This document shows, piece by piece, positions 151-20,449 of a stretch of DNA of 56,729 nt; positions within the stretch are counted from its first letter, which is position 1, and every line of letters starts with the position of its first letter. The position numbers and the translations under genes are program-made. The stretch comes from a virus. Taxonomy: Duplodnaviria > Caudoviricetes. The stretch is taken from positions 1-56,729 of IMG/VR virus record IMGVR_UViG_3300031885_000016; one strand, written 5' to 3'. Under the pieces are notes generated by a model that worked only from the letters and a program-made list of their open reading frames with translations, made no database searches and was not told where the DNA came from.

Positions 151-300
151 ATGAGTTTCTTTACATATTGCGAAAAGGTTTCTGGTTTTCTGGGGATTAA
201 GTTGGTGCTGGACAACATTCATGTTATCCATCGCAACTGGGCGCAGAACAAAACTGTTGGGGAGACTGCTGAGGCACTTCGCACTAAGAACAAAGTTTAG
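151..300 (+). CDS. Hypothetical 49-aa protein (paralog of 3668-3835)
   Basis: AGGAG RBS and ATG; stop is the TAG inside the motif. Paralog differs mostly at synonymous sites. Confidence 0.8.
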   Translation: MSFFTYCEKVSGFLGIKLVLDNIHVIHRNWAQNKTVGETAEALRTKNKV

Positions 301-319
301 TTGTACATTGGAGGGCAGG

Positions 320-541
320 ATGAGCAACTACTTCTTGAAACTTTGGGTGACTAGTGATCTTACTTATCAAGTCGCCAATCTTGAAACGGCTGAGACAGCC
401 GAATTTACTGACATTGAAAAGGTGTTAGAATTTTGTGGCGTGGCATTGAACCGATTTAAGTCGGTGGGTTGGGATGGTTACAGGATGGTTCAAGAAAAGA
501 TCGGGGAGAATAGCTGGTGGGTGTTGCCTTATCTTGGTTAG
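320..541 (+). CDS. Hypothetical cassette protein
   Basis: GGAGG RBS directly after motif; stop overlaps next motif. Confidence 0.75.
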   Translation: MSNYFLKLWVTSDLTYQVANLETAETAEFTDIEKVLEFCGVALNRFKSVGWDGYRMVQEKIGENSWWVLPYLG

Positions 542-566
542 TTTAGTTGTACATTGGAGGTATACC

Positions 567-824
567 ATGAGCATTAAAGTTCAAAACATTCCGACGTTGT
601 ATAAGCCACGGGGTGCGGTGTCATTGCCAGACAATCGAGATTGGACGAATCGTTTTGAGATTCGATCTGAGACATCTGATCGGATTTATATTATCGCCCA
701 GCACATTAACCATCGGCACTGGGGATGTTCCTGCCCGGCATGGAAGATTCGACGATCTTGCAAGCATTTGAAAACAGTGGGTTTGCCTACTGGGGAAGTT
801 CCTTATGAAGTCAATCTTAAATAA
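567..824 (+). CDS. SWIM zinc-finger protein
   Basis: WGCSCPAWKIRRSCKHL fits CxCx(n)CxH; GGAGG RBS. Confidence 0.8.
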   Translation: MSIKVQNIPTLYKPRGAVSLPDNRDWTNRFEIRSETSDRIYIIAQHINHRHWGCSCPAWKIRRSCKHLKTVGLPTGEVPYEVNLK

Positions 825-942
825 GATTTTCAATCTGGATGCTGATCCACAAGATTTGAATCTTCAATTCATGTTGGCGATGGCAATATGCATCCTGACC
901 CCTATGGGGATACTGTTTTATTTTTTTGGATAGGGGGCCAAT

Positions 943-1122
943 ATGACTAATGAAGAACTGCTTAGAGCGATTCGAGAAAACAGAGAGAAGCTAGAGCTTC
1001 TTGTGCAGGCAATGGAACGACATAAGAAACGCCGGTGGTGGAATCAGTTGGTTCAATACCTATCCATATTGCTTGGAATTATTGTTGGTCAATTGGCGTT
1101 CAAGTTCTGGATGGCTAGTTAA
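943..1122 (+). CDS. Small protein with C-terminal TM helix (59 aa)
   Basis: MTNEELLRAI...SILLGIIVGQLAFKFWMAS; stop TAA inside motif copy 1118. Confidence 0.7.
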   Translation: MTNEELLRAIRENREKLELLVQAMERHKKRRWWNQLVQYLSILLGIIVGQLAFKFWMAS

Positions 1123-1141
1123 GTTGTACATTGGAGCATTC

Positions 1142-1456
1142 ATGGAAACCAAAAAGAAGAAACGTGGATTCTTGGATGGCTATAAGAAGTATGATACTTC
1201 TAATGGGTTTGGGAATCGTCAAGAGTGGATGAATGCTTTTTATGCTCGGCTTGGATTTGAGCAGGCCCTTGAGGTATTGGGGGAGGATGATCCTCTGGTA
1301 TTGTTTGGTTTGAAAGCTGATGCGACGTGGGCGGATGTATCTGCTAGATGGCGGGAGTTGGCTGTGAAGCATCATCCTGATAAGGGTGGCGATCCTGTTG
1401 TGTTTAAGAAATACGGTGCGGCATTTGAGGTATTGGAAAGGCGGTATGGCAAATGA
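1142..1456 (+). CDS. J-domain (DnaJ-like) protein
   Basis: WRELAVKHHPDKGGDP contains the HPD J-domain signature; GGAG RBS after motif. Confidence 0.85.
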   Translation: METKKKKRGFLDGYKKYDTSNGFGNRQEWMNAFYARLGFEQALEVLGEDDPLVLFGLKADATWADVSARWRELAVKHHPDKGGDPVVFKKYGAAFEVLERRYGK

Positions 1457-1761
1457 TTAAAGCCAAGATTCATTCTGACGATTATGTGTTTGAATATGAA
1501 TTTGACGGCACACCTTGGTTCAAAGAGGCCAGCTTAGAGGATTTGCATCGGTTGTATGCTGAGGGCTGGTGTAGTTGCATTGAAGCCGATCAAGTGGCAA
1601 TTGAGGCCAGTAATGGTCCTATGACCGAAGAAACCGAGAATATCAAATTCCTTATTGATTACTGCCAGCGTAAAGGCGAGGGATTTGAGGTTGAGATTGA
1701 TGAGTTATCGGTTTTGGGTTGGCTTAAGTCTAACCGTCCTGATGTCTTGCTAGAAGTTTAG
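1453..1761 (+). CDS. Acidic hypothetical protein
   Basis: ATGA overlap with the J-domain gene; ends EV-stop in motif. Confidence 0.75.
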   Translation: MIKAKIHSDDYVFEYEFDGTPWFKEASLEDLHRLYAEGWCSCIEADQVAIEASNGPMTEETENIKFLIDYCQRKGEGFEVEIDELSVLGWLKSNRPDVLLEV

Positions 1762-1804
1762 TTGTACATTGTGTGATTGTCTCAAATCAAACAAGGAGAA
1801 AATC

Positions 1805-2221
1805 ATGAGCTATGACAACGATCATCGGGTGCGGGCTGGGCGTAGAACTAAGCGATTGGAAGTCCAAGGCAACCAGTTAGTTGGTTGGGTTACTTCAGAC
1901 GATGAGGATGAGGTTCTTGTCGAATTTCCTTTGAAGTATGAGGCATGTCCGACTTGTCAAGGTCGTGGGAAGCATACCAATCCATCTATTGACAGTCATG
2001 GGTTATCTGCTGAGGATTTTGCGGAAGATCCAGATTTTCTCCAAGATTATTTCAGCGGTGTGTATGACGTAGCTTGTTATGAGTGTGGTGGTCGAACTAC
2101 GGTGGCTGTTGTGGATGAGGCTCGTGCCAATCCAGAACAATTGGCTTTGTGGCACGCTCAAGAGCAATGGGATCGGGAGTATGAGGCCGAATGTGCGGCT
2201 GAGCGTCGTTTCGGGTATTAG
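1805..2221 (+). CDS. Zn-finger protein (DnaJ-type CxxCxGxG)
   Basis: CPTCQGRG and CYECGG; AAGGAG RBS. Confidence 0.75.
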   Translation: MSYDNDHRVRAGRRTKRLEVQGNQLVGWVTSDDEDEVLVEFPLKYEACPTCQGRGKHTNPSIDSHGLSAEDFAEDPDFLQDYFSGVYDVACYECGGRTTVAVVDEARANPEQLALWHAQEQWDREYEAECAAERRFGY

Positions 2222-2259
2222 TTTAGTTGTACATTGGGGAGTCATAAGGGAGAACAAAA

Positions 2260-2625
2260 ATGAAAACGATTGATGTAAACGAAGAGTATACGGATGTGTT
2301 GTTTGCGGTTGCTTCGACTTATGCGGATTGTCGCCCTGATATTATGGGTGAGGATCATGCTTATCGCACTCGCAAGTTGATGTGGCGTGCTGCTCGGGCT
2401 GTGCCTCGTGATGCTGCCAAGATCATTTTGCAGCGATGTATCCCTGAGGGGTACAATGCGTTTGAGGCTAATTTGCTGGATTTGCTTCCGGCTGATTGTC
2501 AGGTTGAGATTGCTCGGGAATACTCCGTTTGCATTTATGTGCAAAAGGCGTTGAAAGAGATTCCTGATATGCTGGCTGACGAATGGCATGTTGAGGGGGA
2601 TGTGACTCGGATTTGGTGGGACTAA
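2260..2625 (+). CDS. Hypothetical protein
   Basis: GGGAG RBS, 121-aa ORF after motif. Confidence 0.75.
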   Translation: MKTIDVNEEYTDVLFAVASTYADCRPDIMGEDHAYRTRKLMWRAARAVPRDAAKIILQRCIPEGYNAFEANLLDLLPADCQVEIAREYSVCIYVQKALKEIPDMLADEWHVEGDVTRIWWD

Positions 2626-2759
2626 TGACCACTAAAGAAAAAGTTTTTCTTAGTGATTTTTGACTTCATCTGTAATAGAGAGGATGAAGATCACGAAGCC
2701 AAGGTCAATGCGGCATTGGATCGAACTGTAGTCAAGGAATTACGGGAAAGATTTGAAAT

Positions 2760-2978
2760 ATGAATTGGAAAGTTGGCAAGGCGTTGATTTGGTGGGGTGT
2801 GTTTGGTTTTGGTGTGATTTTAACCAATATGGCGATGGGAGTTGTAGATCGTCGTGTTGAGTTTCTTGAAATGATGATTTGGGTGGCTTGTGCTTCATTC
2901 TTTGTGGCAAGCTATTTGGAGAATATCAAGCCGAGTCATTTGGGATTCATTGAGCATTTTTTAACAAAGAGGTATTGA
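2760..2978 (+). CDS. Small membrane protein
   Basis: Two hydrophobic segments; ends 3 nt before motif. Confidence 0.65.
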   Translation: MNWKVGKALIWWGVFGFGVILTNMAMGVVDRRVEFLEMMIWVACASFFVASYLENIKPSHLGFIEHFLTKRY

Positions 2979-3017
2979 GAAGTTTAGTTGTACATTGTTG
3001 GATCAAGGAGACTAAAC

Positions 3018-3389
3018 ATGAAATACACTGGCACGATGGATTGGACTTTTGAGCCGGAAGATGGTCCGATAACTGCAATTGACTTTTCTTTTTCTTGGGG
3101 ATATAACCCACAGACTCCCGACGTTATGTATCTTCGCAATGGCGATCCTGGGTATCCAGGCGATCCAGAGGAGATGGAGATTACGGAGATTGAGCGGGCT
3201 GATATTAAAGCTGTTTGGTTCGGGGATACATCTATCCAAAGGCATATGTGCCAAGAGCAATGGTTTTTCACTCAGACGGTAAAATGGTTGAATGAAAATA
3301 CCGAAGTTGGCAAACCGTTGTATAATGCTATCTTGGAGAGGGTTCGAGAAGAATTGGCGGCACGATTGGAGGTGTGGGATGAAGATTGA
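3018..3389 (+). CDS. Hypothetical acidic protein
   Basis: AAGGAG RBS; contains NGDPGYPGDPEE. Confidence 0.75.
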   Translation: MKYTGTMDWTFEPEDGPITAIDFSFSWGYNPQTPDVMYLRNGDPGYPGDPEEMEITEIERADIKAVWFGDTSIQRHMCQEQWFFTQTVKWLNENTEVGKPLYNAILERVREELAARLEVWDED

Positions 3390-3546
3390 TCCGATTTCAA
3401 AAAAGCAGATTGAACAATTGCGAGAGCAAGTGAAGTTGCAGGCGGCTTATATTCGGTTTCTGGAGCAAGGATTGTCTGCTGCTCAAGATAAAGAGTTTAA
3501 TCGCAAGGTCGAAGCTGGAGAGCTTGATTACGCTAAGGGCTGCTAG
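3379..3546 (+). CDS. Small coiled-coil protein
   Basis: GGAGG RBS; stop overlaps motif 3546. Confidence 0.65.
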   Translation: MKIDPISKKQIEQLREQVKLQAAYIRFLEQGLSAAQDKEFNRKVEAGELDYAKGC

Positions 3547-3560
3547 TTTAGTTGTACACT

Positions 3561-3654
3561 GACCTCGTAGCTCAGTTGGTAGAGCAACGGACTTCCGCTG
3601 TTGAAACAGCATGAATTAATCCGTGGGTCGTGAGTTCAAGTCTCACCGGGGTCA
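3561..3654 (+). tRNA. tRNA-Lys-derived gene with 21-nt insertion in the anticodon loop (intron-containing, decoy or pseudo-tRNA)
   Basis: Identical to 64-136 except one D-loop base and the insert CCGCTGTTGAAACAGCATGAA (3595-3615) between U34 and U35. Confidence 0.8.
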
Positions 3655-3667
3655 CTAGGAGAAAACA

Positions 3668-3835
3668 ATGAGTTTCTTTAAATACTGCGAAAAGGTTTCT
3701 GGTTTTCTGGGGATTAAGTTGGTGCTGGATAACATTCATGTTATTCATCGCAATTGGGCACAAAACAAAACAGTTAGTGAAACTGTTGGGAATCTAATGC
3801 TGGAAAAACTGGAGAGAAATCAGGAGAAAGTATGA
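3668..3835 (+). CDS. Hypothetical 55-aa protein (paralog of 151-300)
   Basis: MSFFKYCEKVSGFLGIKLVLDNIHVIHRNWAQNKTV...; AGGAG RBS. Confidence 0.8.
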   Translation: MSFFKYCEKVSGFLGIKLVLDNIHVIHRNWAQNKTVSETVGNLMLEKLERNQEKV

Positions 3836-4017
3836 AAGACGCTTTAATTATGGGTGGTGCAGTTCTTGGTGTGCTGTGCCTGATTGCCTTAGTGGTATCA
3901 GTGGTTATTGCGATCTTTCCTTTCTTGGTTGCAATTGCTGGTGTCGTTATCATATGGAGAATTGTCCTTTGTGTGATAAGTGGCACGCCGTTTTTTACTG
4001 GGAAGTTGCCGTGGTAG
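3832..4017 (+). CDS. Small membrane protein
   Basis: Highly hydrophobic, ATGA overlap, stop overlaps motif. Confidence 0.75.
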   Translation: MKDALIMGGAVLGVLCLIALVVSVVIAIFPFLVAIAGVVIIWRIVLCVISGTPFFTGKLPW

Positions 4018-4071
4018 TTTAGTTGTACATTGGTGGTTTGTTCTGAACGAGTTTAACTAAGGGAGAATTGA

Positions 4072-4323
4072 ATGGCTGGTAAGGAAAAGGCTGCGAAGCG
4101 TCCGAGTTGCACATTGGCTCAAGTGCTGGAGACTGGTGCCTTGGAGGTTCATGTTGGAGGAGTGTTGATTGGCGTTGTGAATCCGAAGGAGTTTTCGACT
4201 GGAAGCTTTGGGTTTGGCTTTCAGGGGCCTGTTGCTATCAAGCTGAAGGATGGCATTGCTGAATGTCAGGTCGGCTTGAACATTACGGTGAAGCACAGCA
4301 AGCCCGAGTCGGCGGCTGCGTAA
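4072..4323 (+). CDS. Hypothetical protein ending in -SAAA
   Basis: GGGAG RBS; contains KEFSTGSFGF. Confidence 0.8.
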   Translation: MAGKEKAAKRPSCTLAQVLETGALEVHVGGVLIGVVNPKEFSTGSFGFGFQGPVAIKLKDGIAECQVGLNITVKHSKPESAAA

Positions 4324-4391
4324 TTCATGGTCATTGGTGGGTAGGCCACAAAGACTAAAAAATAGGGTCTACAAATACAAAGGGGAGACTG

Positions 4392-4658
4392 ATGATTAGC
4401 GTAGTGTTTCGGGTGACGTTGCAGGGTAGTTATGTAATGACTAAGACGATGACCGTTCCTGTTGTCCCCCAGAAGGATGATGATGTGGTTGTGGAGAATC
4501 AGTGGTTTGTGGTTAAAAACAATCGTTTTCTAATGGAACGATCTCAAGCTTATGTGGTAGTGGTGGTCGAGATTCTACGGGAGCAGAATCAAACTAAGCT
4601 TGTGTTGGAGGACAATGGTTGGGTACGAGAAGATACGTTGGAACCTGATGATGTTTAG
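4392..4658 (+). CDS. Hypothetical protein
   Basis: GGGGAG RBS; ends DV-stop in motif. Confidence 0.7.
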   Translation: MISVVFRVTLQGSYVMTKTMTVPVVPQKDDDVVVENQWFVVKNNRFLMERSQAYVVVVVEILREQNQTKLVLEDNGWVREDTLEPDDV

Positions 4659-4699
4659 TTGTACATTCGGGAGATGTAAAACAAAGGGAGAAACAAAGT

Positions 4700-5119
4700 A
4701 TGGGAATGGGTTATGCTGCTACGCACGGTTGGATTTTGACATCTGCGGATCTCAAAAAGATATGTCCTGATGAGTTTGCGGCGGTTGAAGCTGCGTTGGA
4801 GTTGATCGAATCTGATGAAGATGGGCCATATACTCTTGCTCGATATACACAAGCCATTACTAATGGTGAGGTTATCACAGGAGTTATCGACGAAGCGATT
4901 ACTGCTTTAGCTAAGGCGTTTACCGAAAAGACCAAGGTGGGGGACAGCAAGTTGCAGATTTATCTCGGCTATTACGATGCTGATAGCGGCGATATGTATG
5001 ATGAAATTGAGAATGGGGAATACTGGGAGATTGGCGGCATGGAGGCATTGACTCCAGCCGGTGTTAAACTGAAAGAGATTAGTGATGTGGCTCATCAAGC
5101 ATGGGTTCATCTTGGATAG
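4700..5119 (+). CDS. Acidic hypothetical protein
   Basis: GGGAG RBS; stop overlaps motif. Confidence 0.8.
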   Translation: MGMGYAATHGWILTSADLKKICPDEFAAVEAALELIESDEDGPYTLARYTQAITNGEVITGVIDEAITALAKAFTEKTKVGDSKLQIYLGYYDADSGDMYDEIENGEYWEIGGMEALTPAGVKLKEISDVAHQAWVHLG

Positions 5120-5133
5120 TTAAGTTGTACATT

Positions 5134-5570
5134 GGTGGGTGTTGAAACAATTGTCGGCTGACCCTTACGCTTAGGGTCCATTTGATGTCGGTGTCCCAAA
5201 CCTGTGCCACAAGCTATGGGGAGGGAGCAACATCCGTTTAATCGAGCGACAAGCCCGTAATGACCTGAGCGGTCAGAGGGATTTCGATTCACTGGAGTTG
5301 GTGTCCTATTTCGTATTTCATGGATATTGAATAGGAGCAACCCGGTTTTGTTACTTGTCCGACAACAATAACTAGTCTGAGCGATGACGATAAAAGCTTG
5401 CCGTATGGGATTACGTAAAGCCCCCCTAGAACTTGGGTCAATAATCCGCTGGTCATCGTAAGACCACTAAGGCATTGTCCTGCCGGTACAGTCAAGGCAA
5501 ATAGGGCCAAAGTAAGTGAAAGCTTGTAACAGGGAGCCGAAGCAATCGCTAGGCTCCCTGACTTTGTTTT
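5134..5570 (+). ncRNA. Candidate large structured non-coding RNA occupying its own cassette
   Basis: No credible + strand ORF. Nested helices: 5151-57/5359-65, 5160-65/5173-78, 5248-53/5354-59, 5261-65/5271-75, 5304-10/5330-36, 5382-88/5452-58, 5408-13/5442-47. Terminal hairpin 5530-38/5552-60 plus T-rich tail. Confidence 0.65.
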
Positions 5571-5606
5571 ATGACTTATAAAGTTTATTTGTACATTAGG
5601 TTGGAT

Positions 5607-5876
5607 ATGAAGCCGAATAAAATGAAAATTGCTGGCGGGGAATGGATCAAGCTACCCGACTATCCGATGGGTGGCAGACCACTTAAGCCCCGTTGCTCTA
5701 AATGCAATCGTGAATGTGAAGCTCGTTTGCATCGTATGTGGTTGTGTGCTAATTGCCCGACTACTAAAGAACAGCGGGAAAATGCCAAGCCAAAGAAAAG
5801 CAATTCGGCGGCGTTGGCGATGTTGTATGCAGCGGCAGCAATCGGTATGCCGTATATCAAGGTTGACAAAGTTTAG
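5607..5876 (+). CDS. Small Zn-ribbon protein
   Basis: CSKC...CANC; ends KV-stop in motif. Confidence 0.65.
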   Translation: MKPNKMKIAGGEWIKLPDYPMGGRPLKPRCSKCNRECEARLHRMWLCANCPTTKEQRENAKPKKSNSAALAMLYAAAAIGMPYIKVDKV

Positions 5877-5897
5877 TTGTACATTTGGGAGAATGTT

Positions 5898-6236
5898 ATG
5901 AGCATGGGATGGCAGACTACTGAGGATGATGTGATGACGGTTCTATCCGCTCACAATATCAAGGTCACTAAAGATCGGCTAAAAGAGATCTATGAGGGAC
6001 TTGATTTGGATGCGATTGAGGATGGTGTATATTATTACACCAGCATCGACGCCCAGACCGATAGCATGTTGTGTGACATTGAAGATCAGTTGATGGAACA
6101 ATTCATCATTGTCGGCAAAGAAAAACAGTATGACGAAGCCGATGAGGATGAATTCCTTGATGAAGATGAAGATGACGAAGATGACGAAGATGACGAAGAT
6201 GATGAGCATGATTTGAATATGTCCAGCATGTGGTAG
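5898..6236 (+). CDS. Very acidic protein with D/E tract
   Basis: GGGAG RBS; tail DEDEDDEDDEDDEDDE encoded by a GAAGATGAC repeat. Confidence 0.8.
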   Translation: MSMGWQTTEDDVMTVLSAHNIKVTKDRLKEIYEGLDLDAIEDGVYYYTSIDAQTDSMLCDIEDQLMEQFIIVGKEKQYDEADEDEFLDEDEDDEDDEDDEDDEHDLNMSSMW

Positions 6237-6259
6237 TTAAGTTGTACACTGGAGGATAC

Positions 6260-6559
6260 ATGAAACCATTTACTGTGCCGACAATGAAAGTCAAAGTTCT
6301 GATGCTTGCATTTGGCGATCCTGGTCAGGTGCGAGAGGTTGAGGTTCCTGTTGAGTCTGAGAGCGTATTGGATGAGGTTTTCCGATATGGACAAAACGAC
6401 TTTCAGCCGCAGAGATGTCCTAGTGTGAGCAAAGGAGATGTGATCGAATACAACGGTCATCATTTGGTTGCCAGCTTTGGATTCAAGGAGTTATCTGAGG
6501 AGCAGTTGCAGGAATATACTGCAATGGATAGACGAGATCGTTACTTCTATGAAGTTTAG
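6260..6559 (+). CDS. YodL-like domain protein
   Basis: PSVSKGDVIEYNG...VASFGFKEL resembles the YodL motif (SxSxxDV...VDxxGF). Confidence 0.6.
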   Translation: MKPFTVPTMKVKVLMLAFGDPGQVREVEVPVESESVLDEVFRYGQNDFQPQRCPSVSKGDVIEYNGHHLVASFGFKELSEEQLQEYTAMDRRDRYFYEV

Positions 6560-6607
6560 TTGTACATTGGGGTGCTGTCACTAAACTTTTCACAAAGGGG
6601 AGAACGA

Positions 6608-7201
6608 ATGGATCGGCACTATCGGGTACGATATCATGACAAGGGTTTGGGTTCGACGACTTACGGCGTGGTTGACTCTTACTGTCCAGAGGCTAAAAAG
6701 TTGCCAAAGGGGCAGGTGCTTGTTGAGCATGCTATTTATCCCAAGCGGATAGTGGTGGAAGAATCGACGTTGGTTGATATTCCTTTGGCTTATGGTGGGG
6801 AATACGATCAATACGTATGTCTCATGCAGGATTTGCATGAAATATTGGCAGATCGTTTGGGTTATGCGAAATTGAAGCCCGGTCATCAATTCTCTATGAG
6901 TGTTGGTGATGGTGCTGCTCACTACGTTGTGACCAAGGTTCGCCAAGCGACTTGCACGGTGGAATGGCGTGGGTTCAATGGTGATCGGTATGTTGATCGG
7001 GTGTTTGGTTGGGGTGGTTCCTTTCGTCGTAGGGATGTTGAGCCCTTGGTTGGGATTGGCCATCAGCCTTTTTCCAGTTTGCTTGAACCTGATCGGGTGA
7101 AAACACTGGAGAGTGAGATCGGCCAGAAGATGATTGGTTTCCAAAGAACTTGGAAACAGTCTCCCCAAGAGTTGTTGGCCATGTATAGTCAGATTGTGTG
7201 A
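6608..7201 (+). CDS. Hypothetical protein
   Basis: GGGGAG RBS; ~197 aa; followed by terminator. Confidence 0.8.
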   Translation: MDRHYRVRYHDKGLGSTTYGVVDSYCPEAKKLPKGQVLVEHAIYPKRIVVEESTLVDIPLAYGGEYDQYVCLMQDLHEILADRLGYAKLKPGHQFSMSVGDGAAHYVVTKVRQATCTVEWRGFNGDRYVDRVFGWGGSFRRRDVEPLVGIGHQPFSSLLEPDRVKTLESEIGQKMIGFQRTWKQSPQELLAMYSQIV

Positions 7202-7214
7202 GTCTCCCCAGGAT

Positions 7215-7266
7215 GGCTCCCCCAACCGAATTCTCCCGATTCGGTTGGGGTTGAGCCTCTTTTTTT
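7215..7266 (+). terminator. Intrinsic terminator
   Basis: CCCCAACCGAAT/ATTCGGTTGGGG stem plus T-tract immediately before motif 7271. Confidence 0.8.
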
Positions 7267-8903: not shown

Positions 8904-8921
8904 TTGTACATTAGGAGAAAC

Positions 8922-13103: not shown

Positions 13104-13655
13104 ATGAAAACGATCACTGTCGAAGAATTGGCAAAGAAGCTGTACGATGAGAAGGGCACGACGTTTGCGACGATTCTGGCCTTCACCAAGCCCAACTTTG
13201 TTGGTGGGCAAAAATGCCCGATGATTCAACGGGGCGTCAAAAAGCTGGCTGTCGTCAACGTAATGATCGGAAACTGGTCATACGAAAACGCTGTCAACAA
13301 TCAACGGGAACGTGAACACGCCGATGAAAATGAAACGGTCGAACACTTCACCGCTCAAAGCCGCTCTTGGGGCGAACAACTCGCAACCGAAGTCGGCAAA
13401 CGGATCGGCCTGATTCAACATACGAAAGACGGCGAAGTTAAAACCTACCTGAAAACCAAAATTCAGAAGTCGCTTCGCCACTCTTACTATGACAACAACG
13501 GCCAGCACGTCAACCGTGAGGAAGCCGAACAACACATTCGACGAAACAAGCCATCGGTTCGCCAAGGTGTTGAGAAAGAGGTTTTTGAACGGGATTACGA
13601 ATTGAAAAACATTCGTGCTATCAGAATGCACGGCGAAGTTTACGTCATCGCCTAA
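13104..13655 (+). CDS. Hypothetical protein
   Basis: 183-aa ORF, AAGG RBS, followed by terminator hairpin at about 13659-13688. Confidence 0.85.
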   Translation: MKTITVEELAKKLYDEKGTTFATILAFTKPNFVGGQKCPMIQRGVKKLAVVNVMIGNWSYENAVNNQREREHADENETVEHFTAQSRSWGEQLATEVGKRIGLIQHTKDGEVKTYLKTKIQKSLRHSYYDNNGQHVNREEAEQHIRRNKPSVRQGVEKEVFERDYELKNIRAIRMHGEVYVIA

Positions 13656-13753
13656 GATTCTCCCCCCGAAAGGGGGGAGCTTTCTTTTCATAATCTTGCA
13701 AAGTTAATTTGTACATTAGTGGGTTGTAACATCAACAACCAAGGGGAAAAATC

Positions 13754-14005
13754 ATGAGTGTTGAATTTGAGCCGTCTGCATTGAAGTTGCAACTCCAAGC
13801 CGCTCTAGGATTGAGCGATGATGATTTTGGTTATCATGCGACGGATTTATACGTGCTGGACAAGCCCGGCGTAATGGACTGGTTGAAAAAGAACTACGGT
13901 AGTTTCCGCAGCATCAAGCGGTTCATCGGCAATGCTGGACACCCGACTTTTGGGGGCAAACCTGCCCTGGATATTCCCTTCGCTGGAATTTGGAAGAAGG
14001 TTTAG
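13754..14005 (+). CDS. Hypothetical protein
   Basis: YHATDLYV...LDIPFA; ends KV-stop in motif. Confidence 0.75.
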   Translation: MSVEFEPSALKLQLQAALGLSDDDFGYHATDLYVLDKPGVMDWLKKNYGSFRSIKRFIGNAGHPTFGGKPALDIPFAGIWKKV

Positions 14006-14047
14006 TTGTACATTGTTGTGACGTAAACCAAAAATTCCAAGGAGAGA

Positions 14048-14254
14048 ATGATGAAAGTTTTTGTTGTGTGCCAAGGTGAGAGCGGAGAGGGAGCGGGGCC
14101 TATTGCGGTGTTCAGCACAAAACGCAAGGCAAAGGCATTCATCAAACGAGATCATCCTGAATTTAAAGATCCTGTTGAAGGATTGGACAATACATGGACC
14201 AGCGATAAATTCGGCGTAGACCTCATCAGCATTCAAGAGTTCGAAGTAGTTTAG
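14048..14254 (+). CDS. Small hypothetical phage protein
   Basis: MKVFVV...IAVFSTKRKAKAF pattern common in small phage proteins; AAGGAG RBS. Confidence 0.75.
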   Translation: MMKVFVVCQGESGEGAGPIAVFSTKRKAKAFIKRDHPEFKDPVEGLDNTWTSDKFGVDLISIQEFEVV

Positions 14255-14274
14255 TTGTACATAGGGGACAACAG

Positions 14275-14397
14275 ATGGTAATGATTTTTGTTTGTGTGGC
14301 TCTTGCTTATGCTGGAGCCCCTAATTGGGTGTGGTGGTTGGCAGTTGGCTATACGGTACTTTGCTTTCTGGCTCAATCGCAAGAAAGTGGAGTTTAG
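14275..14397 (+). CDS. 40-aa membrane peptide
   Basis: MVMIFVCVALAYAGAPNWVWWLAVGYTVLCFLAQSQESGV; fills the cassette, stop inside motif. Confidence 0.6.
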   Translation: MVMIFVCVALAYAGAPNWVWWLAVGYTVLCFLAQSQESGV

Positions 14398-14417
14398 TTG
14401 TACATTTAGGAGACATC

Positions 14418-14543
14418 ATGGGTCGCAGTGGTCAGAAGTTTCGTGATAAATTCAAACAAGCTCGTGAACAACGGGAACGTGCCCGGCAAGGCAAGCGTCG
14501 TTTCCTTAATGATGCCCCCAAGGACATCAAGAAAGCATCGTAA
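14418..14543 (+). CDS. Small basic protein
   Basis: AGGAG RBS right after motif; R/K-rich. Confidence 0.65.
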   Translation: MGRSGQKFRDKFKQAREQRERARQGKRRFLNDAPKDIKKAS

Positions 14544-14612
14544 AGAAAAAATAGGTGCAAGTTTAGTTGTACATTACCTCAGTGTAACCAACAACAACTC
14601 AGAGGAAACGTG

Positions 14613-14945
14613 ATGAAAGCCTACATCTATCAAGCTGACATCTACTGCGAAGATTGTATGAAGGATATGCCGCACCCCGAAGATCAATCGTCCTACGATA
14701 GCGACGAATATCCTAAAGGGCCGTTTGCTGATGGTGGGGGAAGTGCCGATAGCCCACAACATTGCGGCAATCATGGGGATTGTGTCAACGCAATTACTCT
14801 TAGCGACGGCACTAAGATTGGCGTATGGCTGGAGAATCCCTTGACCAATGAAGGGGTCGAATACGTCCGAGATCATATCGCAGAAGAACCAGACAACGAA
14901 GTTGTGAAATTGTGGGCTGAGTGGTACGCCGATGACCTAGTTTAG
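14613..14945 (+). CDS. Acidic Cys-containing hypothetical protein
   Basis: YQADIYCEDC...DSPQHC...LENPLT; GAGG RBS; LV-stop in motif. Confidence 0.8.
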   Translation: MKAYIYQADIYCEDCMKDMPHPEDQSSYDSDEYPKGPFADGGGSADSPQHCGNHGDCVNAITLSDGTKIGVWLENPLTNEGVEYVRDHIAEEPDNEVVKLWAEWYADDLV

Positions 14946-14963
14946 TTGTACATTAGAGGCTAT

Positions 14964-15128
14964 ATGACTCACACAGCAATCATCAACTGTTCTGGTCGGG
15001 AGATTAAGGTGACTCGCATTGGCAAGTTGCTAATCATTCACTCGCACCGAACCAGCACAATTGGCGAACGAATTTCAACGTGTCGTTACGATCATCGCTT
15101 CACCCTGTTGCCAAGAGAGCATCAATGA
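14964..15128 (+). CDS. Small hypothetical protein
   Basis: GAGG RBS after motif; ATGA overlap with next gene. Confidence 0.55.
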   Translation: MTHTAIINCSGREIKVTRIGKLLIIHSHRTSTIGERISTCRYDHRFTLLPREHQ

Positions 15129-15310
15129 AAATCATTCGATATGCAATTGTGAGAATTGAGATTGAAGCTGTGGACGTGGGGACTGACCCTGACGAAGCGG
15201 CACAACGGGTTATCGACAATTGCGAATATGCTTTCGTCTATGACGATGGATTAGTCAAAGTTGTGGACACTGAGATTTTGGATTGCAGTGAGGATCACCC
15301 GCTAGTTTAG
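15125..15310 (+). CDS. Small acidic protein
   Basis: Ends LV-stop in motif. Confidence 0.65.
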   Translation: MKIIRYAIVRIEIEAVDVGTDPDEAAQRVIDNCEYAFVYDDGLVKVVDTEILDCSEDHPLV

Positions 15311-15360
15311 TTGTACATTACTAGGCTGTAACAGCAACAACACCACAAGAGAGAAAAGTC

Positions 15361-15699
15361 ATGGACAAAGGCAACAATCGTCGCTACGAAAAAGGCCGCA
15401 GCAGCAAGGGATTTCTGCGGGGAGAACGAATTGAGAAGCTGGAGCAATTGAAGCCCGGCGACATTCTGTTTAACGTCTGCCACAAGCAATCGACCGAGTC
15501 GCTGGTGGAAGTCATCAACGTTCGGGCCACCATGTTCGATTTCATCTTCGTGACCGCCCACGAAACGAAAAAGAAGGGTTTGCACCTCAAAGTTAAGAAG
15601 GGTGACGAACAACTCAAGGCCAAGAGCCTTACCGATCTGCCCTTTAACGAGTGTTATCGGGCTATCACGACAAAAATGGGAATGAAACAAGCGGCCTAA
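15361..15699 (+). CDS. Basic hypothetical protein ending -QAA
   Basis: 112-aa ORF followed by hairpin and T-tract at about 15707-15745. Confidence 0.75.
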   Translation: MDKGNNRRYEKGRSSKGFLRGERIEKLEQLKPGDILFNVCHKQSTESLVEVINVRATMFDFIFVTAHETKKKGLHLKVKKGDEQLKAKSLTDLPFNECYRAITTKMGMKQAA

Positions 15700-15809
15700 C
15701 AAGTTAAAGAGGGAGGGTGCCCCGAAAGCCCCTCTTCTCTTTTTAAATTCATACAAAGTTAATTTGTACATTAGGTGGGTGTAACCGCCAATCATCTCAA
15801 AGGTGCAAA

Positions 15810-16013
15810 ATGATTATCCGAATCAGTGAGGAAGAGTATGCGGAACTGTCTGAGGAAAATGGTGGCTATTGCCTCGCTTGTGGCGAAGTCGCTTATGGGG
15901 TCGAACCAGACGCAAGGAAGTACACTTGTGAGTCATGTGATTCACCCAGCGTTTACGGCATCGAAGAATTGCTAATCATGGGCAAAATCGAGTTCGGAGA
16001 ATCCGACGACTAG
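15810..16013 (+). CDS. Zn-ribbon protein
   Basis: CLACGE...EPDARKYTCESC; stop overlaps motif. Confidence 0.8.
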   Translation: MIIRISEEEYAELSEENGGYCLACGEVAYGVEPDARKYTCESCDSPSVYGIEELLIMGKIEFGESDD

Positions 16014-16070
16014 TTTAGTTGTACATTTGTGGCATGTGTTGATAACAAACCTCAAGCGGAGTAAAGTGAC

Positions 16071-16409
16071 ATGGCTAAGGACAAGATTGCTCACGTTCGT
16101 TCGGCTAAGGCCAAGACCCCCAAGCAACTCGCCAAGAAGGCCCTGAATGAAGCTCGTGCCGCCGAACGGTTCAAGCGTCATCAAGAGCTTGACAAGCAAC
16201 GGCTCGCTCAGAAGCAAGAGCGTGCCCAACAAGCGGCTCAGGCGAATCGTGATCGGTTCATCATTCAATCGGCCTTGAACGGCCCCCATGCTGTCATCCT
16301 CCTCCGATGGCTCAAGGGACGGGAAGCCACCATCGACCGAGTTCAACGATTCTGCGATGATCGCCCCAAGTTCGTGCGGCCAAACGTCGCAGCCATCATC
16401 GCAGCCTAA
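16071..16409 (+). CDS. Basic helical protein ending -IIAA
   Basis: GGAG RBS; followed by terminator. Confidence 0.75.
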   Translation: MAKDKIAHVRSAKAKTPKQLAKKALNEARAAERFKRHQELDKQRLAQKQERAQQAAQANRDRFIIQSALNGPHAVILLRWLKGREATIDRVQRFCDDRPKFVRPNVAAIIAA

Positions 16410-16412
16410 TGA

Positions 16413-16437
16413 AAAGGCCCCTTCGGGGGCCTTTTCT
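16413..16437 (+). terminator. Intrinsic terminator
   Basis: AAAAGGCCCC-TTCG-GGGGCCTTTT. Confidence 0.85.
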
Positions 16438-16507
16438 ATTTAAAATAATACAAAGTTAATTTGTACATTAGGTGAGTGTAACCACAACACACAAGAGGAC
16501 AAGAGCC

Positions 16508-16687
16508 ATGCTAATTGATTGTGATCGTGAGACTTACGGCAAGTTCATCCGTAGCTTGCAGAATGCTACCGATAAGCCGACAAGCTGCACAACCTTCAGC
16601 GTCATGCAAACCAGTGTCAATGGCAAACTAGTGGCTCAGGCAATCTACAACCATGCTATGCCACCTCGATACCAAATCGAAGCCTAG
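16508..16687 (+). CDS. Small hypothetical protein
   Basis: GAGG RBS; stop overlaps motif. Confidence 0.65.
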   Translation: MLIDCDRETYGKFIRSLQNATDKPTSCTTFSVMQTSVNGKLVAQAIYNHAMPPRYQIEA

Positions 16688-16738
16688 TTTAGTTGTACAT
16701 TAGTGGGATGTAACAACCAAACCCCAAGAGACAAGACA

Positions 16739-17023
16739 ATGATTAAGTCTAAGCACCCCGTTCGTGACAAAGTTGCCAGCCTCAGCACTACCAATAACTA
16801 TTACAACTTCAAGGGCGACTTCATCCGTGCCATTGATGACGTGCTGGAGGAATTCGGCTGGACAACGGGCGATTGCGATCTCTATGGGGACAATGGACGC
16901 CAAACTGTCAACGTCGTCCTTAAGGACGAACGGGGCAACCTAGTCGAAGAAGTCGGCCAAGTTATCCTCAGTTGGTATCGGATGCCAAGTGGCCGATACG
17001 AAATGACCTGCTATCTCTCCTAA
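16739..17023 (+). CDS. Hypothetical protein
   Basis: C-terminal WYRMPSGRYEMTCYLS; hairpin GGGGC-GAAA-GCCCC follows. Confidence 0.75.
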   Translation: MIKSKHPVRDKVASLSTTNNYYNFKGDFIRAIDDVLEEFGWTTGDCDLYGDNGRQTVNVVLKDERGNLVEEVGQVILSWYRMPSGRYEMTCYLS

Positions 17024-17108
17024 TGGGGGGGCGAAAGCCCCTTTATAAATGTGCAAAGTTAATTTGTACATTAGGTGAATGTAACCAACTCCAACCCCCG
17101 AGACAACA

Positions 17109-17303
17109 ATGAACAGATTTCTCAAAAATTATCAGGTTAGACCGGGTCGCACTGTGCAAGTGGATCATATGGTCCAAACATTCACTATTGAGATTCGGTC
17201 GCTCAGCGGTGCCGATCAAGCCACCATCAAACGGCTCCTGCAAGCCAAATACGAAGTGCTTGATGTGCAACCAGCCGGATACCGAGTGATCGCCGAAGTT
17301 TAG
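17109..17303 (+). CDS. Small hypothetical protein
   Basis: Ends EV-stop in motif. Confidence 0.7.
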   Translation: MNRFLKNYQVRPGRTVQVDHMVQTFTIEIRSLSGADQATIKRLLQAKYEVLDVQPAGYRVIAEV

Positions 17304-17350
17304 TTGTACATTAGGTGAATGTAACCACCAATTCAAACGGAGAGAAAGCC

Positions 17351-17698
17351 ATGAATGTTCTGCGTGATAAGTTTCCCCACCTGATTGACCTGACCCCCGA
17401 TGTGGACACAAAGGGATTCACTTACTTGGCTACAACGCCAGTCATCAAGCAACCGGGCACTTTGCCCTACCGAATTGTCCTGGTCTGTAATGGCGACCAA
17501 TTCATCGTCTACAACCAGTATTTCAACAAGTATCACGTCGATCCGCTGTCGGGCTATCTGGAAACCGCCAAGCCGTCATTCTCCGATGGCAACTACTTCG
17601 GAAATCAGCACTTACATGCGGCCTTGAAGTGCTTCGGCAATCGAGTCGCCAAGGATGCGGTCCATATCGAGAGCATCTATCGGAAAGAAACAGTGTAG
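17351..17698 (+). CDS. Hypothetical protein
   Basis: GGAG RBS; stop overlaps motif. Confidence 0.75.
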   Translation: MNVLRDKFPHLIDLTPDVDTKGFTYLATTPVIKQPGTLPYRIVLVCNGDQFIVYNQYFNKYHVDPLSGYLETAKPSFSDGNYFGNQHLHAALKCFGNRVAKDAVHIESIYRKETV

Positions 17699-17832
17699 TT
17701 TAGTTGTACACTGAGTAGTCGCCAAGGGAATATAAACTTGAACAGTGGCTCTAACATAAGGAGAACTATCATGTGACCCCTAGACTGTCATCACAAGCTT
17801 ATAATTTTTGATCCTCTTTTTTGGAAAGAACT

Positions 17833-18012
17833 ATGCGAACCTTTGAAGTTTTCAACTGTGGTCGGTTTCTGGGCAAGGTGCGGGCTGTCAACCCCGTGAA
17901 TGCGTTTAAGAACGCTCAAAAGAAGTGGCCTTACCTCAGCACCGGCGAGATGGAACTGCAAGATCCGAACGTGCAACGTCGGGGCCATGTGGCCTACAAC
18001 AAAGCCGCCTAA
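17833..18012 (+). CDS. Small basic protein ending -NKAA
   Basis: MRTFEVF...VRAVNPVNAF. Confidence 0.65.
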   Translation: MRTFEVFNCGRFLGKVRAVNPVNAFKNAQKKWPYLSTGEMELQDPNVQRRGHVAYNKAA

Positions 18013-18104
18013 TTGCTTGGCGGTGAAAATGGGCCACCAATCATAGGGGTGGCGGCGGGAACTGCCAAAGTGCCTTAGTTTACTTGTACATTTAGGAGAA
18101 GCAG

Positions 18105-18299
18105 ATGAAACTCAGTCACCTGACCGTGTATTTCGACATTCAATGGCATATGCGTGATGGACGGGGCCATTGTGTCGATGTTGATCTGCCTGACAATTCA
18201 GACGGCACTCGTGCTGGTGGCAACGATGGCACTCGTTTTTCGTCACCGGCTGAAGCCGGAAGATTTGTCGCTGATTGGCTTGTCGAACAGATTTCATAG
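18105..18299 (+). CDS. Small hypothetical protein
   Basis: AGGAG RBS right after motif; stop overlaps next motif. Confidence 0.7.
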   Translation: MKLSHLTVYFDIQWHMRDGRGHCVDVDLPDNSDGTRAGGNDGTRFSSPAEAGRFVADWLVEQIS

Positions 18300-18348
18300 T
18301 TTAGTTGTACATTAGGTGAATGTAACAACCTCACACCGGAGCCAAACA

Positions 18349-18546
18349 ATGGCCAAGAACAAGCTCAACAATGATGATCGTCGCCAATGGATCGACAACG
18401 ATGAGGGCCTTTACAACTGGTATCGGTCCAGTCGCCTCAGCATGACCAAATTCATCAAGGAAAACAAAGAAGAACTTGATGCGGCGATCAATCGGGTTCT
18501 CAACGCCCCGCCCCCCGAAAAGACTTGGCGAGACTACGTTAGGTAG
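18349..18546 (+). CDS. Small hypothetical protein
   Basis: GGAG RBS; RRQWIDNDEGLYNW. Confidence 0.75.
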   Translation: MAKNKLNNDDRRQWIDNDEGLYNWYRSSRLSMTKFIKENKEELDAAINRVLNAPPPEKTWRDYVR

Positions 18547-18608
18547 TGGAGAGAGCCCCTTCGGGGGCTCTTTTCTTTTTAACTTGTGCAAAGTTAATTT
18601 GTACATTA
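18544..18608 (+). repeat. Terminator+motif module, identical copy at 20060-20124
   Basis: TAGTGGAGAGAGCCCCTTCGGGGGCTC-(T-rich)-AACTTGTGCAAAGTTAATTTGTACATTA. A related module pair lies at about 19081-19140 and 19476-19533. Confidence 0.9.
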
Positions 18609-18644
18609 CTTGGATGTAATGACAACACTCACCGGAGCCAAACA

Positions 18645-19076
18645 ATGCTTCACTTCTCAACCGCTTCCGATCTCGCTCAAATTGGTTGGACTGAGGATGG
18701 CGAACCTGATGTGATCGAAGAGTTTTATGTGGTTGCCAGCGACGAACACGGCAACCAATGGCGAAGCCCAACTGTCCGACACGATTGGACCAATTCATTC
18801 CGATTCTGCAAGGATTATGTTGCCAAACAGATTGAAAAGGTCCGCTTTGCTCTTTACCGATGGGAACCAATTCAAGTTTTCATCCTTGGAAGCATCGCAG
18901 AACGACATGGCTTTGAAAACGAATGCGAACTGCTTCATCGGGAATCGGTCACGAAATTGGATGTGACCACTTGGCAACCGTGGTTCCCACAATACGGCTC
19001 AGACGCCTACGTTAGTAGTGGACAAGAGGCAAAGTATCTGGCTGCCGAACGTGCTGGCGTCCCTTACTACTGCTAA
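18645..19076 (+). CDS. Hypothetical protein
   Basis: Leader CACCGGAGCCAAACAATG shared with the 18349 gene; C-terminal PQYGSDAY. Confidence 0.75.
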   Translation: MLHFSTASDLAQIGWTEDGEPDVIEEFYVVASDEHGNQWRSPTVRHDWTNSFRFCKDYVAKQIEKVRFALYRWEPIQVFILGSIAERHGFENECELLHRESVTKLDVTTWQPWFPQYGSDAYVSSGQEAKYLAAERAGVPYYC

Positions 19077-19170
19077 CACAAAGCCCCTTCGGGGGCTTTT
19101 ACTCTTATTCCTTGCGAAGTTAATTTGTACATTAGTTGGGTGTAACCACAACCTTAACTGGAGAGAAACG

Positions 19171-19470
19171 ATGAACCGTGTTGAAGCTGCTATCGCCAAG
19201 GCCAAGATCGCAATCGAAAACAGTGGTGCCGATCAAGCCAAGCTTGACAAAAACCACAAAGCTTTGGACATGCCGTTCGATGAGTATTGCCGGTTTCAAA
19301 CGATGAAGTCGGCAGCAATGGGCACCATGCTCAACACCGACGAAGCACAGTCGATCTACAACTACTTGGGCAACACCCCCGAGCAATTCAATCGGCAGCC
19401 GCTGGAAGTCAAGATCGTGCTTACGAAGATCTTCGCCGAACTACTGGAACGTCGCATCAAAGCGGCCTAG
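19171..19470 (+). CDS. Hypothetical protein ending -IKAA
   Basis: GGAG RBS; followed by terminator. Confidence 0.8.
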   Translation: MNRVEAAIAKAKIAIENSGADQAKLDKNHKALDMPFDEYCRFQTMKSAAMGTMLNTDEAQSIYNYLGNTPEQFNRQPLEVKIVLTKIFAELLERRIKAA

Positions 19471-19545
19471 AGAGAAGCCCCTTCGGGGGCTTTTACTTTA
19501 TTCCTTGCAAAGTTAATTTGTACATTAGTTGGGTAAGGAGCAACC

Positions 19546-19677
19546 ATGAAGAAAACCGAACACGCTGCCAAGGCCCACAATTGCTTGGGCTATCACAAAC
19601 ATCTTCGTAAGTTCGGCAAAGCACTGGCCCATCGGGCTGTCCGCAATGCACTTCGACGATTACTCAAGCAAGTTTAG
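19546..19677 (+). CDS. 43-aa basic peptide
   Basis: AAGGAG RBS; MKKTEHAAKAHNCLGYHKHLRKFGK...LKQV-stop in motif. Confidence 0.7.
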   Translation: MKKTEHAAKAHNCLGYHKHLRKFGKALAHRAVRNALRRLLKQV

Positions 19678-19732
19678 TTGTACATTACTTGGATATAACC
19701 ACAACAACACCCCTTACCTAGAGAGATTCGAC

Positions 19733-20062
19733 ATGAAGTTTTTCATCCAGTTAGTTGCCAGCGAACTGAAGTTTGAATGTGTGGACCAACACGTTTTCGA
19801 CAATCGCAATTTCGCTCTTGCGGATGACGGCGGACCACGTTACACCAAGAATTGGTTCTCGTCTATCCCCGGCAGCGTCGATATTCATTGCGACAATCTG
19901 TCACCTGGCTTGATTGCTGGTATCAATCGCATGGTCGGCAACCCAACCAGTCATCAAGGACTTGGCACGTTCAGCGAGCCCGATAGTGTGGGCTTTCGCC
20001 GTGGTCGTGGCGAATACCTTTACAAGCTGACCGATCAAACGAAGTGGAAGCGAGCGGCCTAG
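19733..20062 (+). CDS. Hypothetical protein ending -KRAA
   Basis: ORF between motif and terminator. Confidence 0.75.
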   Translation: MKFFIQLVASELKFECVDQHVFDNRNFALADDGGPRYTKNWFSSIPGSVDIHCDNLSPGLIAGINRMVGNPTSHQGLGTFSEPDSVGFRRGRGEYLYKLTDQTKWKRAA

Positions 20063-20159
20063 TGGAGAGAGCCCCTTCGGGGGCTCTTTTCTTTTTAACT
20101 TGTGCAAAGTTAATTTGTACATTAGGTGAGTGTAACCACAACACTCAAGGAACAAAGCC

Positions 20160-20402
20160 ATGTGTCAAATCAATCTGGGTTCGCCAATCGGAAGTGAGAA
20201 GGTTCGGGGCGGGTTCCAACCACACTGGCGTACCGTGTTCGTCTACAAGTGCAAGGCTGGTCATGTGGTCAAGGTGCGAGCCAACTCCTACCGTGGCAAA
20301 ACGGCAGTGCCAGGGGTGGGGGCCATCATGTGTCCCACTTGTGAGTTTAATGCCAAGTTCGATGCCATGATGTTTCAACCAACCCACGAACTTGCCTGCT
20401 AG
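20160..20402 (+). CDS. Small Zn-binding protein
   Basis: CKAGH...CPTC; AAGG RBS; stop overlaps motif. Confidence 0.7.
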   Translation: MCQINLGSPIGSEKVRGGFQPHWRTVFVYKCKAGHVVKVRANSYRGKTAVPGVGAIMCPTCEFNAKFDAMMFQPTHELAC

Positions 20403-20449
20403 TTAAGTTGTACATTAGAAGCATGTAACAACTAACAACGGAGCGAACC

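Follow-up and report, generated by a model that had tools for sequence, protein, structure and literature searches.

How do the genes of a phage come to end, time after time, exactly within copies of one short repeat? The locus that raises this question is IMG/VR record IMGVR_UViG_3300031885_000016, from a Caudoviricetes virus, which was analyzed over its whole length of 56,729 bases and is referred to below as the window. Its central element is a 17-nucleotide (nt) repeat, WAGTTWAKTTGTACAYT, found in 55 copies between positions 41 and 21018, all on the + strand, that form an array (39..21018, +) with one copy before most of ∼63 small genes and two tRNAs. An original prediction, made from the letters alone, had the repeat supplying the stop codons of about 35 genes, with C-termini truncated or replaced as genes were joined to it, and acting as a multi-frame translational stop linker. 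In our judgement the repeat is probably a promoter that precedes nearly every gene of a rapidly shuffled small-gene block in a ∼0.5-Mb phage, with stop codons that overlap its fixed bases. The pattern is one of extremely tight gene packing combined with the shuffling of modules and not a new way of ending proteins.

Stop Codons in the Repeat

Copies were identified as matches to GTTWADTTGTACAYT with up to 1 mismatch, for which 0.11 are expected in shuffled sequence. The repeat extends two bases further in the 5' direction, with A at position -1 in 53/55 copies and A, T or G at position -2 in 27, 27 and 1 copies, respectively, where these positions, as well as all stop offsets and copy coordinates, are counted from the G of the repeat. 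The consensus reads TAGTTTAG..., with variants ...GTTAA... and ...ATTAG, and contains an internal quasi-repeat, AGTTT-AGTTG. Literature searches with either 13-mer of the repeat gave no match; its first nine bases are presumably similar to an SP6-type promoter, a resemblance that serves as a lead only.

The stop codon of the upstream gene lies within the repeat or abuts it (flush, in what follows) in 35 of the 55 copies, in agreement with the number predicted. Automatic calls, which yield 63 window genes, distribute these as 16 at +3 (TAG read in GTT TAG, giving a Val-stop), 13 at -2 (TAG), 5 at +2 (TAA read in AGT TAA, giving a Ser-stop) and 1 at -3 (TAA). After correction by hand the counts become 16, 14, 4 and 1, exactly as predicted, and all ten Val-stop and four Ser-stop coordinates that had been named were recovered. 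The corrections concern copy 4017, where a better gene (3832-4017, encoding a 61-residue membrane-like protein with TAG at -2) replaces a 22-residue open reading frame (ORF), and the fifth Ser-stop, at 20735, which belongs to a weak ORF. Copy 9704 is possibly reached by a 39-residue ORF (9590-9709, Val-stop), and copy 41 is also flush, as the gene upstream of it, cut by the contig start, is whole in a relative (R1, below) and ends with TAG at -2.

The Val-stop class, on the + strand like all those that follow, is exemplified by 293..309, where copy 295 ends gene 151-300, and further includes the copies with G at 1756, 4653, 5871, 6554, 8898, 12578, 13050, 14000, 14249, 14392, 14940, 15305, 17298 and 19672, and possibly 9704. 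In the TAG -2 class the stop occupies bases -2 to 0, as at 539..555, where copy 541 ends gene 320-541; the other members are 2221, 3546, 4017, 5119, 6236, 7729, 8486, 10709, 16013, 16687, 17698, 18299 and 20402, plus 41. Ser-stops make use of the variant GTTAAK, for example at 1116..1132, where copy 1118 ends gene 943-1122, and recur at copies 9199, 11125, 12347 and 20731 (the weak ORF), while gene 9957-10382 ends with its own TAA abutting the repeat (10380..10397). Two cases are near but not flush, with the stop at -6: at 2976..2996 the gene's own TGA stands three bases before the G of the repeat, and a second such arrangement is found at 8175-8195, behind the full-length DUF6876 gene 7782-8177.

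In order to establish how general the pattern is we scanned metagenome contigs with an 18-mer, obtaining 13 multi-copy loci, among them four pieces of a 546-kb contig (C90 of assembly G001) and a 22.5-kb contig, R1, composed of loci L113 and L126. Locus L135, which is 96% identical to window positions 5892-8191, and five R1 copies that duplicate window 1-1791 were excluded from the count. In these loci 88 of 155 further copies are flush (40 at +3, 36 at -2, 4 at +2 and 8 at -3) and 34 of 155 sit 31-90 nt behind the previous stop, confirming that the pattern generalizes to related phages.

Chance does not produce such precision. When the 55 sites were relocated at random, in the shuffled-null comparison that the prediction had called for, a mean of 0.65 and a maximum of 6 flush copies resulted in 10,000 trials. 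Among stops that fall between -12 and +3 of a repeat, 35/37 have one of the four flush offsets (binomial P = 4e-16 for a chance share of 4/13), the only two with a short spacer being those at -6, and the same test in the relatives gives 88/95 (P = 8e-37). The stop triplets are consensus bases, in two or three frames, whether or not they are used: TAG at -2 is present in 27 copies (13 used, 14 unused), a stop at +3 in 33 (16 used, 17 unused) and TAA at +2 in 20 (5 used, 15 unused).

C-Termini of Homologous Proteins

The block is rich in ORFans, with Pfam matches for 4/60 proteins (DUF6876, DUF7336, DnaJ and a marginal Robl_LC7 only) and PHROGs matches for 2/60. A Pfam family is absent in 9/10 Val-stop proteins searched, a homologue search with gene 12642-13055 returned itself and its R1 homologue only, and a word search with gene 14051-14254 returned itself only, an exhaustive search adding three short relatives. 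Since wider homologues hardly exist, C-termini were compared within this phage group, and for most of the genes that can be aligned the predicted truncation or replacement at the repeat was not borne out. Of 45 pairs in which one homologue is flush and the other is not, 19 give an alignment that comes within 3 residues of both C-termini, 12 of the 19 with equal tails, and in 21/45 the tail lengths are no more than 2 residues apart. Where one partner exceeds the other by 20 residues or more, it is the non-flush one in 5/45 pairs and the flush one in 3/45; one clear shortening is that of gene 8925-9203, which lacks ∼56 residues present in the R1 homologue.

Terminal residues thought to be gained from the repeat are also found to be native in several cases. 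Gene 12163-12351 ends ELS*, an ending shared by its counterpart in R1 (flush at -2, with AGC TAG) and by one in locus L109 that has no motif. An R1 Val-stop gene ends REV*, as does its homologue in L133, with its own GTC TAA and no motif, and in the DUF7336 gene 14051-14254 the terminal Val is aligned with the final residue of a distant homologue of equal length (67 residues). In the KAA*, GY* and KGC* families the end is unchanged whether the motif, a terminator or other sequence comes next, and the DUF6876 gene covers positions 2-116 of a 117-position profile, stopping three bases before the G of the repeat. Real differences in ends do occur (DDLV* vs EELG*, KKV* vs KKLS*, YLV* vs YLIV*). 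Because homologues without an adjacent repeat mostly keep their C-terminal residues and length, proteins were rarely truncated; what has been lost is the spacer and not part of the protein.

Among pairs of homologues that are both flush the stop register differs in 5/12, and the junction has therefore been remade repeatedly. The quasi-repeat AGTTT-AGTTG, together with extra 5-nt units (AGTTT) that relatives show, may offer a slippage route by which this could take place.

A separate observation concerns C-terminal Ala-Ala, which ends 9/63 window genes (positions 1-21100; 0.58 expected, P = 7e-9) and 32/227 genes of the relatives (loci L108-L134; 1.8 expected); the genes so ended are spread over 22/199 sequence clusters and use varied codons. 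A ClpP-like protease is encoded at 29919-30530 on the minus strand. By the rule for ssrA-type degrons the Ala-Ala end could act as an ssrA-like degron that keeps early proteins short-lived; in phages a ClpP-like protein can also serve as a head protease.

A Probable Promoter before Nearly Every Gene

The distance from the repeat to the next start codon has a minimum of 8 nt and a median of 37 nt and is within 60 nt for 47/55 copies (123/156 in the relatives). Hairpins followed by a T run precede a number of the copies that are not flush: by a strict rule a terminator ends 9-24 nt upstream in 10 of these 20, and weaker hairpins precede two more, 7271 and 5583. The prediction that most non-flush copies follow a terminator thus holds for this half and, less securely, for the two; the others have none. 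The unit is exemplified by 18548..18607 (+), with a G+C-rich hairpin and T run 9-24 nt before the repeat, and is repeated at copies 10949, 11787, 13703, 15758, 16455, 17058, 19119, 19512 and 20109 on the same strand, most terminator-preceded copies having the variant AAGTTAAT. Wherever a terminator comes in between, the repeat stays on the side of the downstream gene. A scan for sigma-70-like sites gave 22, not enriched over the 28.1 of shuffled sequences, with one overlapping a repeat copy, so that the genes behind terminators have no other promoter candidate.

Because the order of terminator, word, leader, ribosome-binding site and gene is the layout of a promoter, and because the distance to the start codon is bounded, terminators lie upstream and copies stand before two tRNAs, the repeat is most likely the promoter of the following gene. 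The 546-kb relative has 33/33 exact copies on a single strand, with 31 gathered in 380.0-412.2 kb, and no exact copy was found in the rest (the other 3 Mb) of that 3.1-Mb assembly; clustered in this way, the repeat marks one gene class, and the block probably consists of early or host-takeover genes. The word would be read by a polymerase or a sigma factor. Four sigma-70-family ORFs are present on C90, near 49.1, 194.3, 205.0 and 541.7 kb. A search of C90 for Rpb2_6 and Rpb1_2 domains gave no match, though very divergent subunits could escape Pfam, PF00940, for a single-subunit RNA polymerase of the T7 type, was unmatched in the 546-kb relative in a search whose control likewise matched in no genome, and a T7-type polymerase was also not found in the window.

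Events might then have unfolded as follows. With a transcription start signal ahead of nearly each small, mostly uncharacterized gene, the interval from a gene to the promoter that follows would hold nothing functional other than a terminator where one is required, and packing would proceed until the final codon and the stop of a gene coincide with fixed bases of the repeat. Repeat bases would come to spell the native stop, either by itself or along with the native last residue, the degenerate positions (-2, +3, +5) adopting whichever letter makes a stop in the arriving frame. Repeat and leader would be the only sequence that neighboring modules have in common, and homologous recombination there would move, delete and replace genes, the flush junctions traveling along.

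Several points weigh against this account. No RNA run was found that contains positions 12000-21100, promoter function and start site being what we infer, and the repeat does not fit a -35/-10 sigma-70 promoter. The ribosome-binding site starts directly behind the repeat in 12 copies, where a start site 6-7 nt downstream would exclude it from the transcript; in these either transcription starts inside or at the end of the repeat or the ribosome-binding sites serve read-through transcripts. For a half-megabase genome, packing explains poorly why no spacer remains upstream of the repeat when leaders of 20-45 nt persist behind it. In the relatives, gene calls that read through a copy number three (in the window none does so, save three probable start-codon miscalls). 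Finally, the unused stop at +3 is kept in 43/49 copies where a gene ends at -2 vs 16/46 terminator-preceded copies (behind a gap of 31-90 nt), with a Fisher P of 8e-8 that overstates independence, as the copies are interrelated and variants may mark promoter classes. Packing does not explain this excess retention, which more than any other finding suggests that the stop content counts in its own right.

The two tRNAs lie on the + strand. A tRNA-Lys(UUU) at 64..137 begins 8 nt behind copy 41, and a paralogue with ∼21 extra bases in the anticodon loop is found at 3561..3655, directly behind copy 3546. ARAGORN labels the latter tRNA-Arg(CCG), 95 nt. It is duplicated together with the gene behind it (139-271 vs 3656-3788, 91%), and in a relative 8 more bases separate the repeat from a tRNA of this type. 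One copy, 5119, precedes a 450-nt structured stretch free of ORFs (5134-5582) that ends in the hairpin before copy 5583. This stretch folds better than shuffled sequences (z -2.8, 0/100 as good) and part of it is 77% alike in L108, while Rfam gave no match in the ORF-free interval 5100-5620; it may be a non-coding RNA. About half of the copies have a second conserved box, similar to GTGnnTGTAACnACAAC, in the leader at offsets of +16 to +36 (for example 17313-17335), chiefly where the leader is long and a terminator lies upstream. On C90 two isolated repeat copies of an ACACT variant are found at 456711-457147, ∼45 kb from the main cluster.

Exchange of Modules at the Repeat

The block is a mosaic. 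R1 and window 1-1791 are 99.94% identical and thereafter unrelated, the junction (1756..1791, +) falling 21 nt past copy 1756 and immediately ahead of the ribosome-binding site of gene 1805-2221. R1 positions 9685-9981 resemble window 13702-13998 (91%) from one base before one copy to just before the next, and a gene common to L130 and R1 (94%) is alike from ATG to TAG only, with the repeat following in one and the ribosome-binding site of the next gene in the other. Homologous modules are partly reordered between R1 and the window and many are replaced. Alignments of the relatives start or stop within a few bases of repeat copies, where they would end in any event given that the repeat is common to all modules. 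Contigs from three other samples contain the same rearranged joins, and by a hand count 12 of the 15 joints listed, out of 43, have one side within 25 nt of a copy. The changed gene order and the one sharp junction make up the solid part of the evidence for recombination. Of the proposal that genes were joined to the site by recombination or trimmed to it, recombination at or beside the repeat stands, and the trimming of proteins mostly does not.

Possible scars are also seen. A 25-nt tandem duplication (12339..12386, +) spans a gene end and the repeat, giving copies 12347 and 12372; at its right begins a stretch of three genes (to 13702) that is absent from R1. Gene 9253-9555 ends GTT TAG in a half-motif relic (9550..9555, +) followed by unrelated sequence, and the homologous gene of R1 has as its stop the TAG at -2 of a complete repeat. 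A second half-motif relic is present in L127 (3640-3675), where behind a gene ending KKAA* come the first ten bases of the repeat, with unrelated sequence beyond them.

Taken together, these features invite the suggestion that the repeat is primarily the recombination site of a cassette system, akin to integron attC or served by a dedicated recombinase, with exact junctions produced by site-specific joining. Relatives do show insertions, deletions and altered gene order whose breaks lie at copies or next to them, the likeness of the L130/R1 gene does end exactly behind its TAG with different sequence after, and relics, duplication and extra AGTTT units resemble scars. We nevertheless regard this as unlikely. 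No recombinase or integrase family was found among the 60 block proteins or the 20 larger ORFs tested in 21-56 kb of a window that holds ∼11% of the genome, and there is no reverse-strand copy or inverted partner, so that an attC-like hairpin cannot form. The one sharp junction is 21 nt behind the repeat and not inside it, which fits homologous exchange in motif plus leader, and selection after any deletion would also leave exact junctions at stops. A cassette site, moreover, leaves the terminator-motif pairs and the fixed distance to the start codon unexplained. Since no recombinase was found and the repeat has no inverted partner, general homologous exchange, as proposed for the promoter-early stem-loops (PeSLs) of T4-type phages considered below, would be the simplest mechanism.

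The integron attC core is GTTRRRY, and integron cassettes are promoterless and rely on a tyrosine-recombinase integrase encoded next to the array and on imperfect inverted repeats that fold into a hairpin. The likeness lies in a one-directional array of small genes, a repeated site beginning with GTT and gene ends that often reach into the site. The differences are that inverted repeats, an integrase and promoterless cassettes are not found here and that only the 7 GTTAAG copies fit the core.

Does the Stop Content Matter?

Two further proposals concern the stops. In one, which we hold to be no better than the cassette site and well short of likely, the repeat is a selected dual-purpose linker, its 5' half releasing ribosomes in three frames and its 3' half serving as promoter, and together with the Ala-Ala ends (∼14% of block proteins) it would amount to a plug-in format for short-lived early genes. 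If so, a half-megabase phage could shuffle any ORF into the format by recombination at the repeat.

In the other, the 5' half is a selected multi-frame translational stop, an insulator that releases ribosomes on read-through transcripts ahead of the leader that follows, and promoter or other signal is confined to the 3' half. Stops are indeed found in all three frames (TAG at -2; TAG at +3 or TAA at +2; TAG at +14 in ATTAG copies), copies are read through only by the few called genes mentioned above, and the degenerate positions coincide exactly with those on which the presence of a stop depends. Gap copies lose the +3 stop by two different routes, through A at +3 in the window and through T or C at +5 in the relatives. 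Against this, the 5' half is equally conserved in copies that ribosomes do not reach, 45-70 nt downstream of a completed gene and its terminator, and A at -1 is kept in 53/55 copies though it is required for a stop in one frame only. TAG at -2 shows no contrast, being present in 18/56 copies that abut a gene in another frame, and so not commoner there than in gap copies (20/46, P 0.3), and the variant classes may be just lineages of copies or classes of promoter. An insulator is for these reasons improbable, slightly more so than the two preceding proposals. Of the multi-frame stop linker originally envisaged, what survives is the presence of stops in several frames and the exact reach of genes to the repeat; the main role of the element is most likely transcriptional.

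A role in RNA is very unlikely, whether as a site where long transcripts are cleaved or processed to yield single-gene mRNAs and the 5' ends of tRNAs, or as a signal for sequence-specific termination. The repeat is indeed found at gene ends, in 12 copies with a ribosome-binding site directly behind it, and 0-8 nt ahead of two tRNAs, and most copies have no terminator before them and hence would be transcribed from upstream. But strong terminators end 9-24 nt ahead of ten copies, and the genes downstream of these have no other candidate promoter, a second terminator right behind a hairpin terminator would be redundant, and no secondary structure is evident beyond a 6-nt palindrome.

Relation to Known Promoter Repeats

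The closest parallel to a promoter with these properties is provided by PeSLs, units of promoter and terminator that stand before ORFans in the hyperplastic regions of T4-type phages (PMC2839356, PMC4122927). In both systems ∼50 repeated units occur per genome; those of the T4-type phages, according to the available text of these reports, join promoter and terminator, and a figure legend has them run from the stop codon of the upstream gene to the ribosome-binding site and start codon of the next (PMC2839356, PMC4122927). In both, recombination between units accounts for insertions, deletions and replacements among close relatives. Here too the repeat precedes ORFans in a plastic region and the differences between relatives are bounded by units. 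As described in that text, a PeSL consists of a sigma-70 consensus (-35/-10) with a stem-loop in or beside it, whereas the present element is one contiguous 17-mer without such a fit; a hairpin accompanies only 10-12/55 copies and is always upstream, the stop is embedded in invariant repeat bases in ∼60% of copies, in three registers, and the phage is of ∼0.5 Mb, its likeness to T4 not being established.

The early promoters read by the virion RNA polymerases of AR9 and phiKZ are similar in that an extended, highly conserved single-element motif occurs in a few dozen copies and defines one temporal class in a very large phage (PMC5312081). Those motifs, as the available part of the source describes them, are AT-rich, with a start site 6 nt downstream, and are used by multisubunit phage polymerases (PMC5312081), and no overlap with stop codons was found in that part (PMC5312081). 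The 546-kb relative differs in having four sigma-family ORFs in place of Rpb2_6/Rpb1_2 matches, with the proviso that divergent subunits could be missed. Halovirus HF2 likewise has intergenic viral repeats that carry promoters (PMC8707807); it is an archaeal virus, its repeats are longer (29 and 58 bp) and an overlap with stop codons is not mentioned in the available text (PMC8707807). A literature search for phage promoters that overlap stop codons found none.

The Phage and Its Relatives

The IMG/VR record ends where the window does, and its CheckV completeness of ∼11%, together with baseplate matches on a 546-kb contig and in a 595-kb phage, indicates that the window is a piece of a phage of roughly 0.5 Mb. 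The baseplate wedge protein is 77% identical to that of C90 and 43% to that of a 595-kb uncultured phage which lacks the repeat (4 matches to a 9-mer). On C90 the baseplate gene is ∼30 kb from the cluster of the same repeat and on the same strand, as in the window. In a phage collection no close relative of the window was found, a tRNA match and the baseplate protein of the 595-kb phage being the only hits, and an IMG/VR scan with a 15-mer of the repeat gave 104 stretches, none of the best 80 of which has more than 2 copies.

Positions 22-56 kb encode a DNA methylase, a helicase-like protein of 809 residues, a Dda-like helicase, a ClpP-like protease, a tRNA nucleotidyltransferase, a tape-measure protein and baseplate proteins. 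The 809-residue ORF looks like a helicase and not like a polymerase; a scan with it gave no match. The GC content is 44-49% in the repeat block (1-21000) vs 35-41% in 22000-56729, and the GC skew is strongly positive (about 0.2-0.3) across the first 12 kb. An acidic Asp/Glu repeat (6130-6211, within gene 5904-6236) draws many unrelated metagenome contigs, giving a peak in depth and loose ends.

Implications

What is novel here is an unusual single-word element within PeSL-like, promoter-linked shuffling in a huge phage. With more than 200 copies across the window and the loci of its relatives, the repeat is a precise landmark for gene boundaries and probable transcription units in an otherwise unannotatable block of uncultivated huge phages, and in gene calling a stop that falls inside the repeat deserves trust and an ORF that crosses it distrust. 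A fixed regulatory word can, it appears, be overprinted on a last codon and stop without shortening the protein. If the repeat is a promoter, then promoter-mediated shuffling of modules, known from T4-type phages, would extend to a very different and much larger phage, with an element that is not sigma-70-like.

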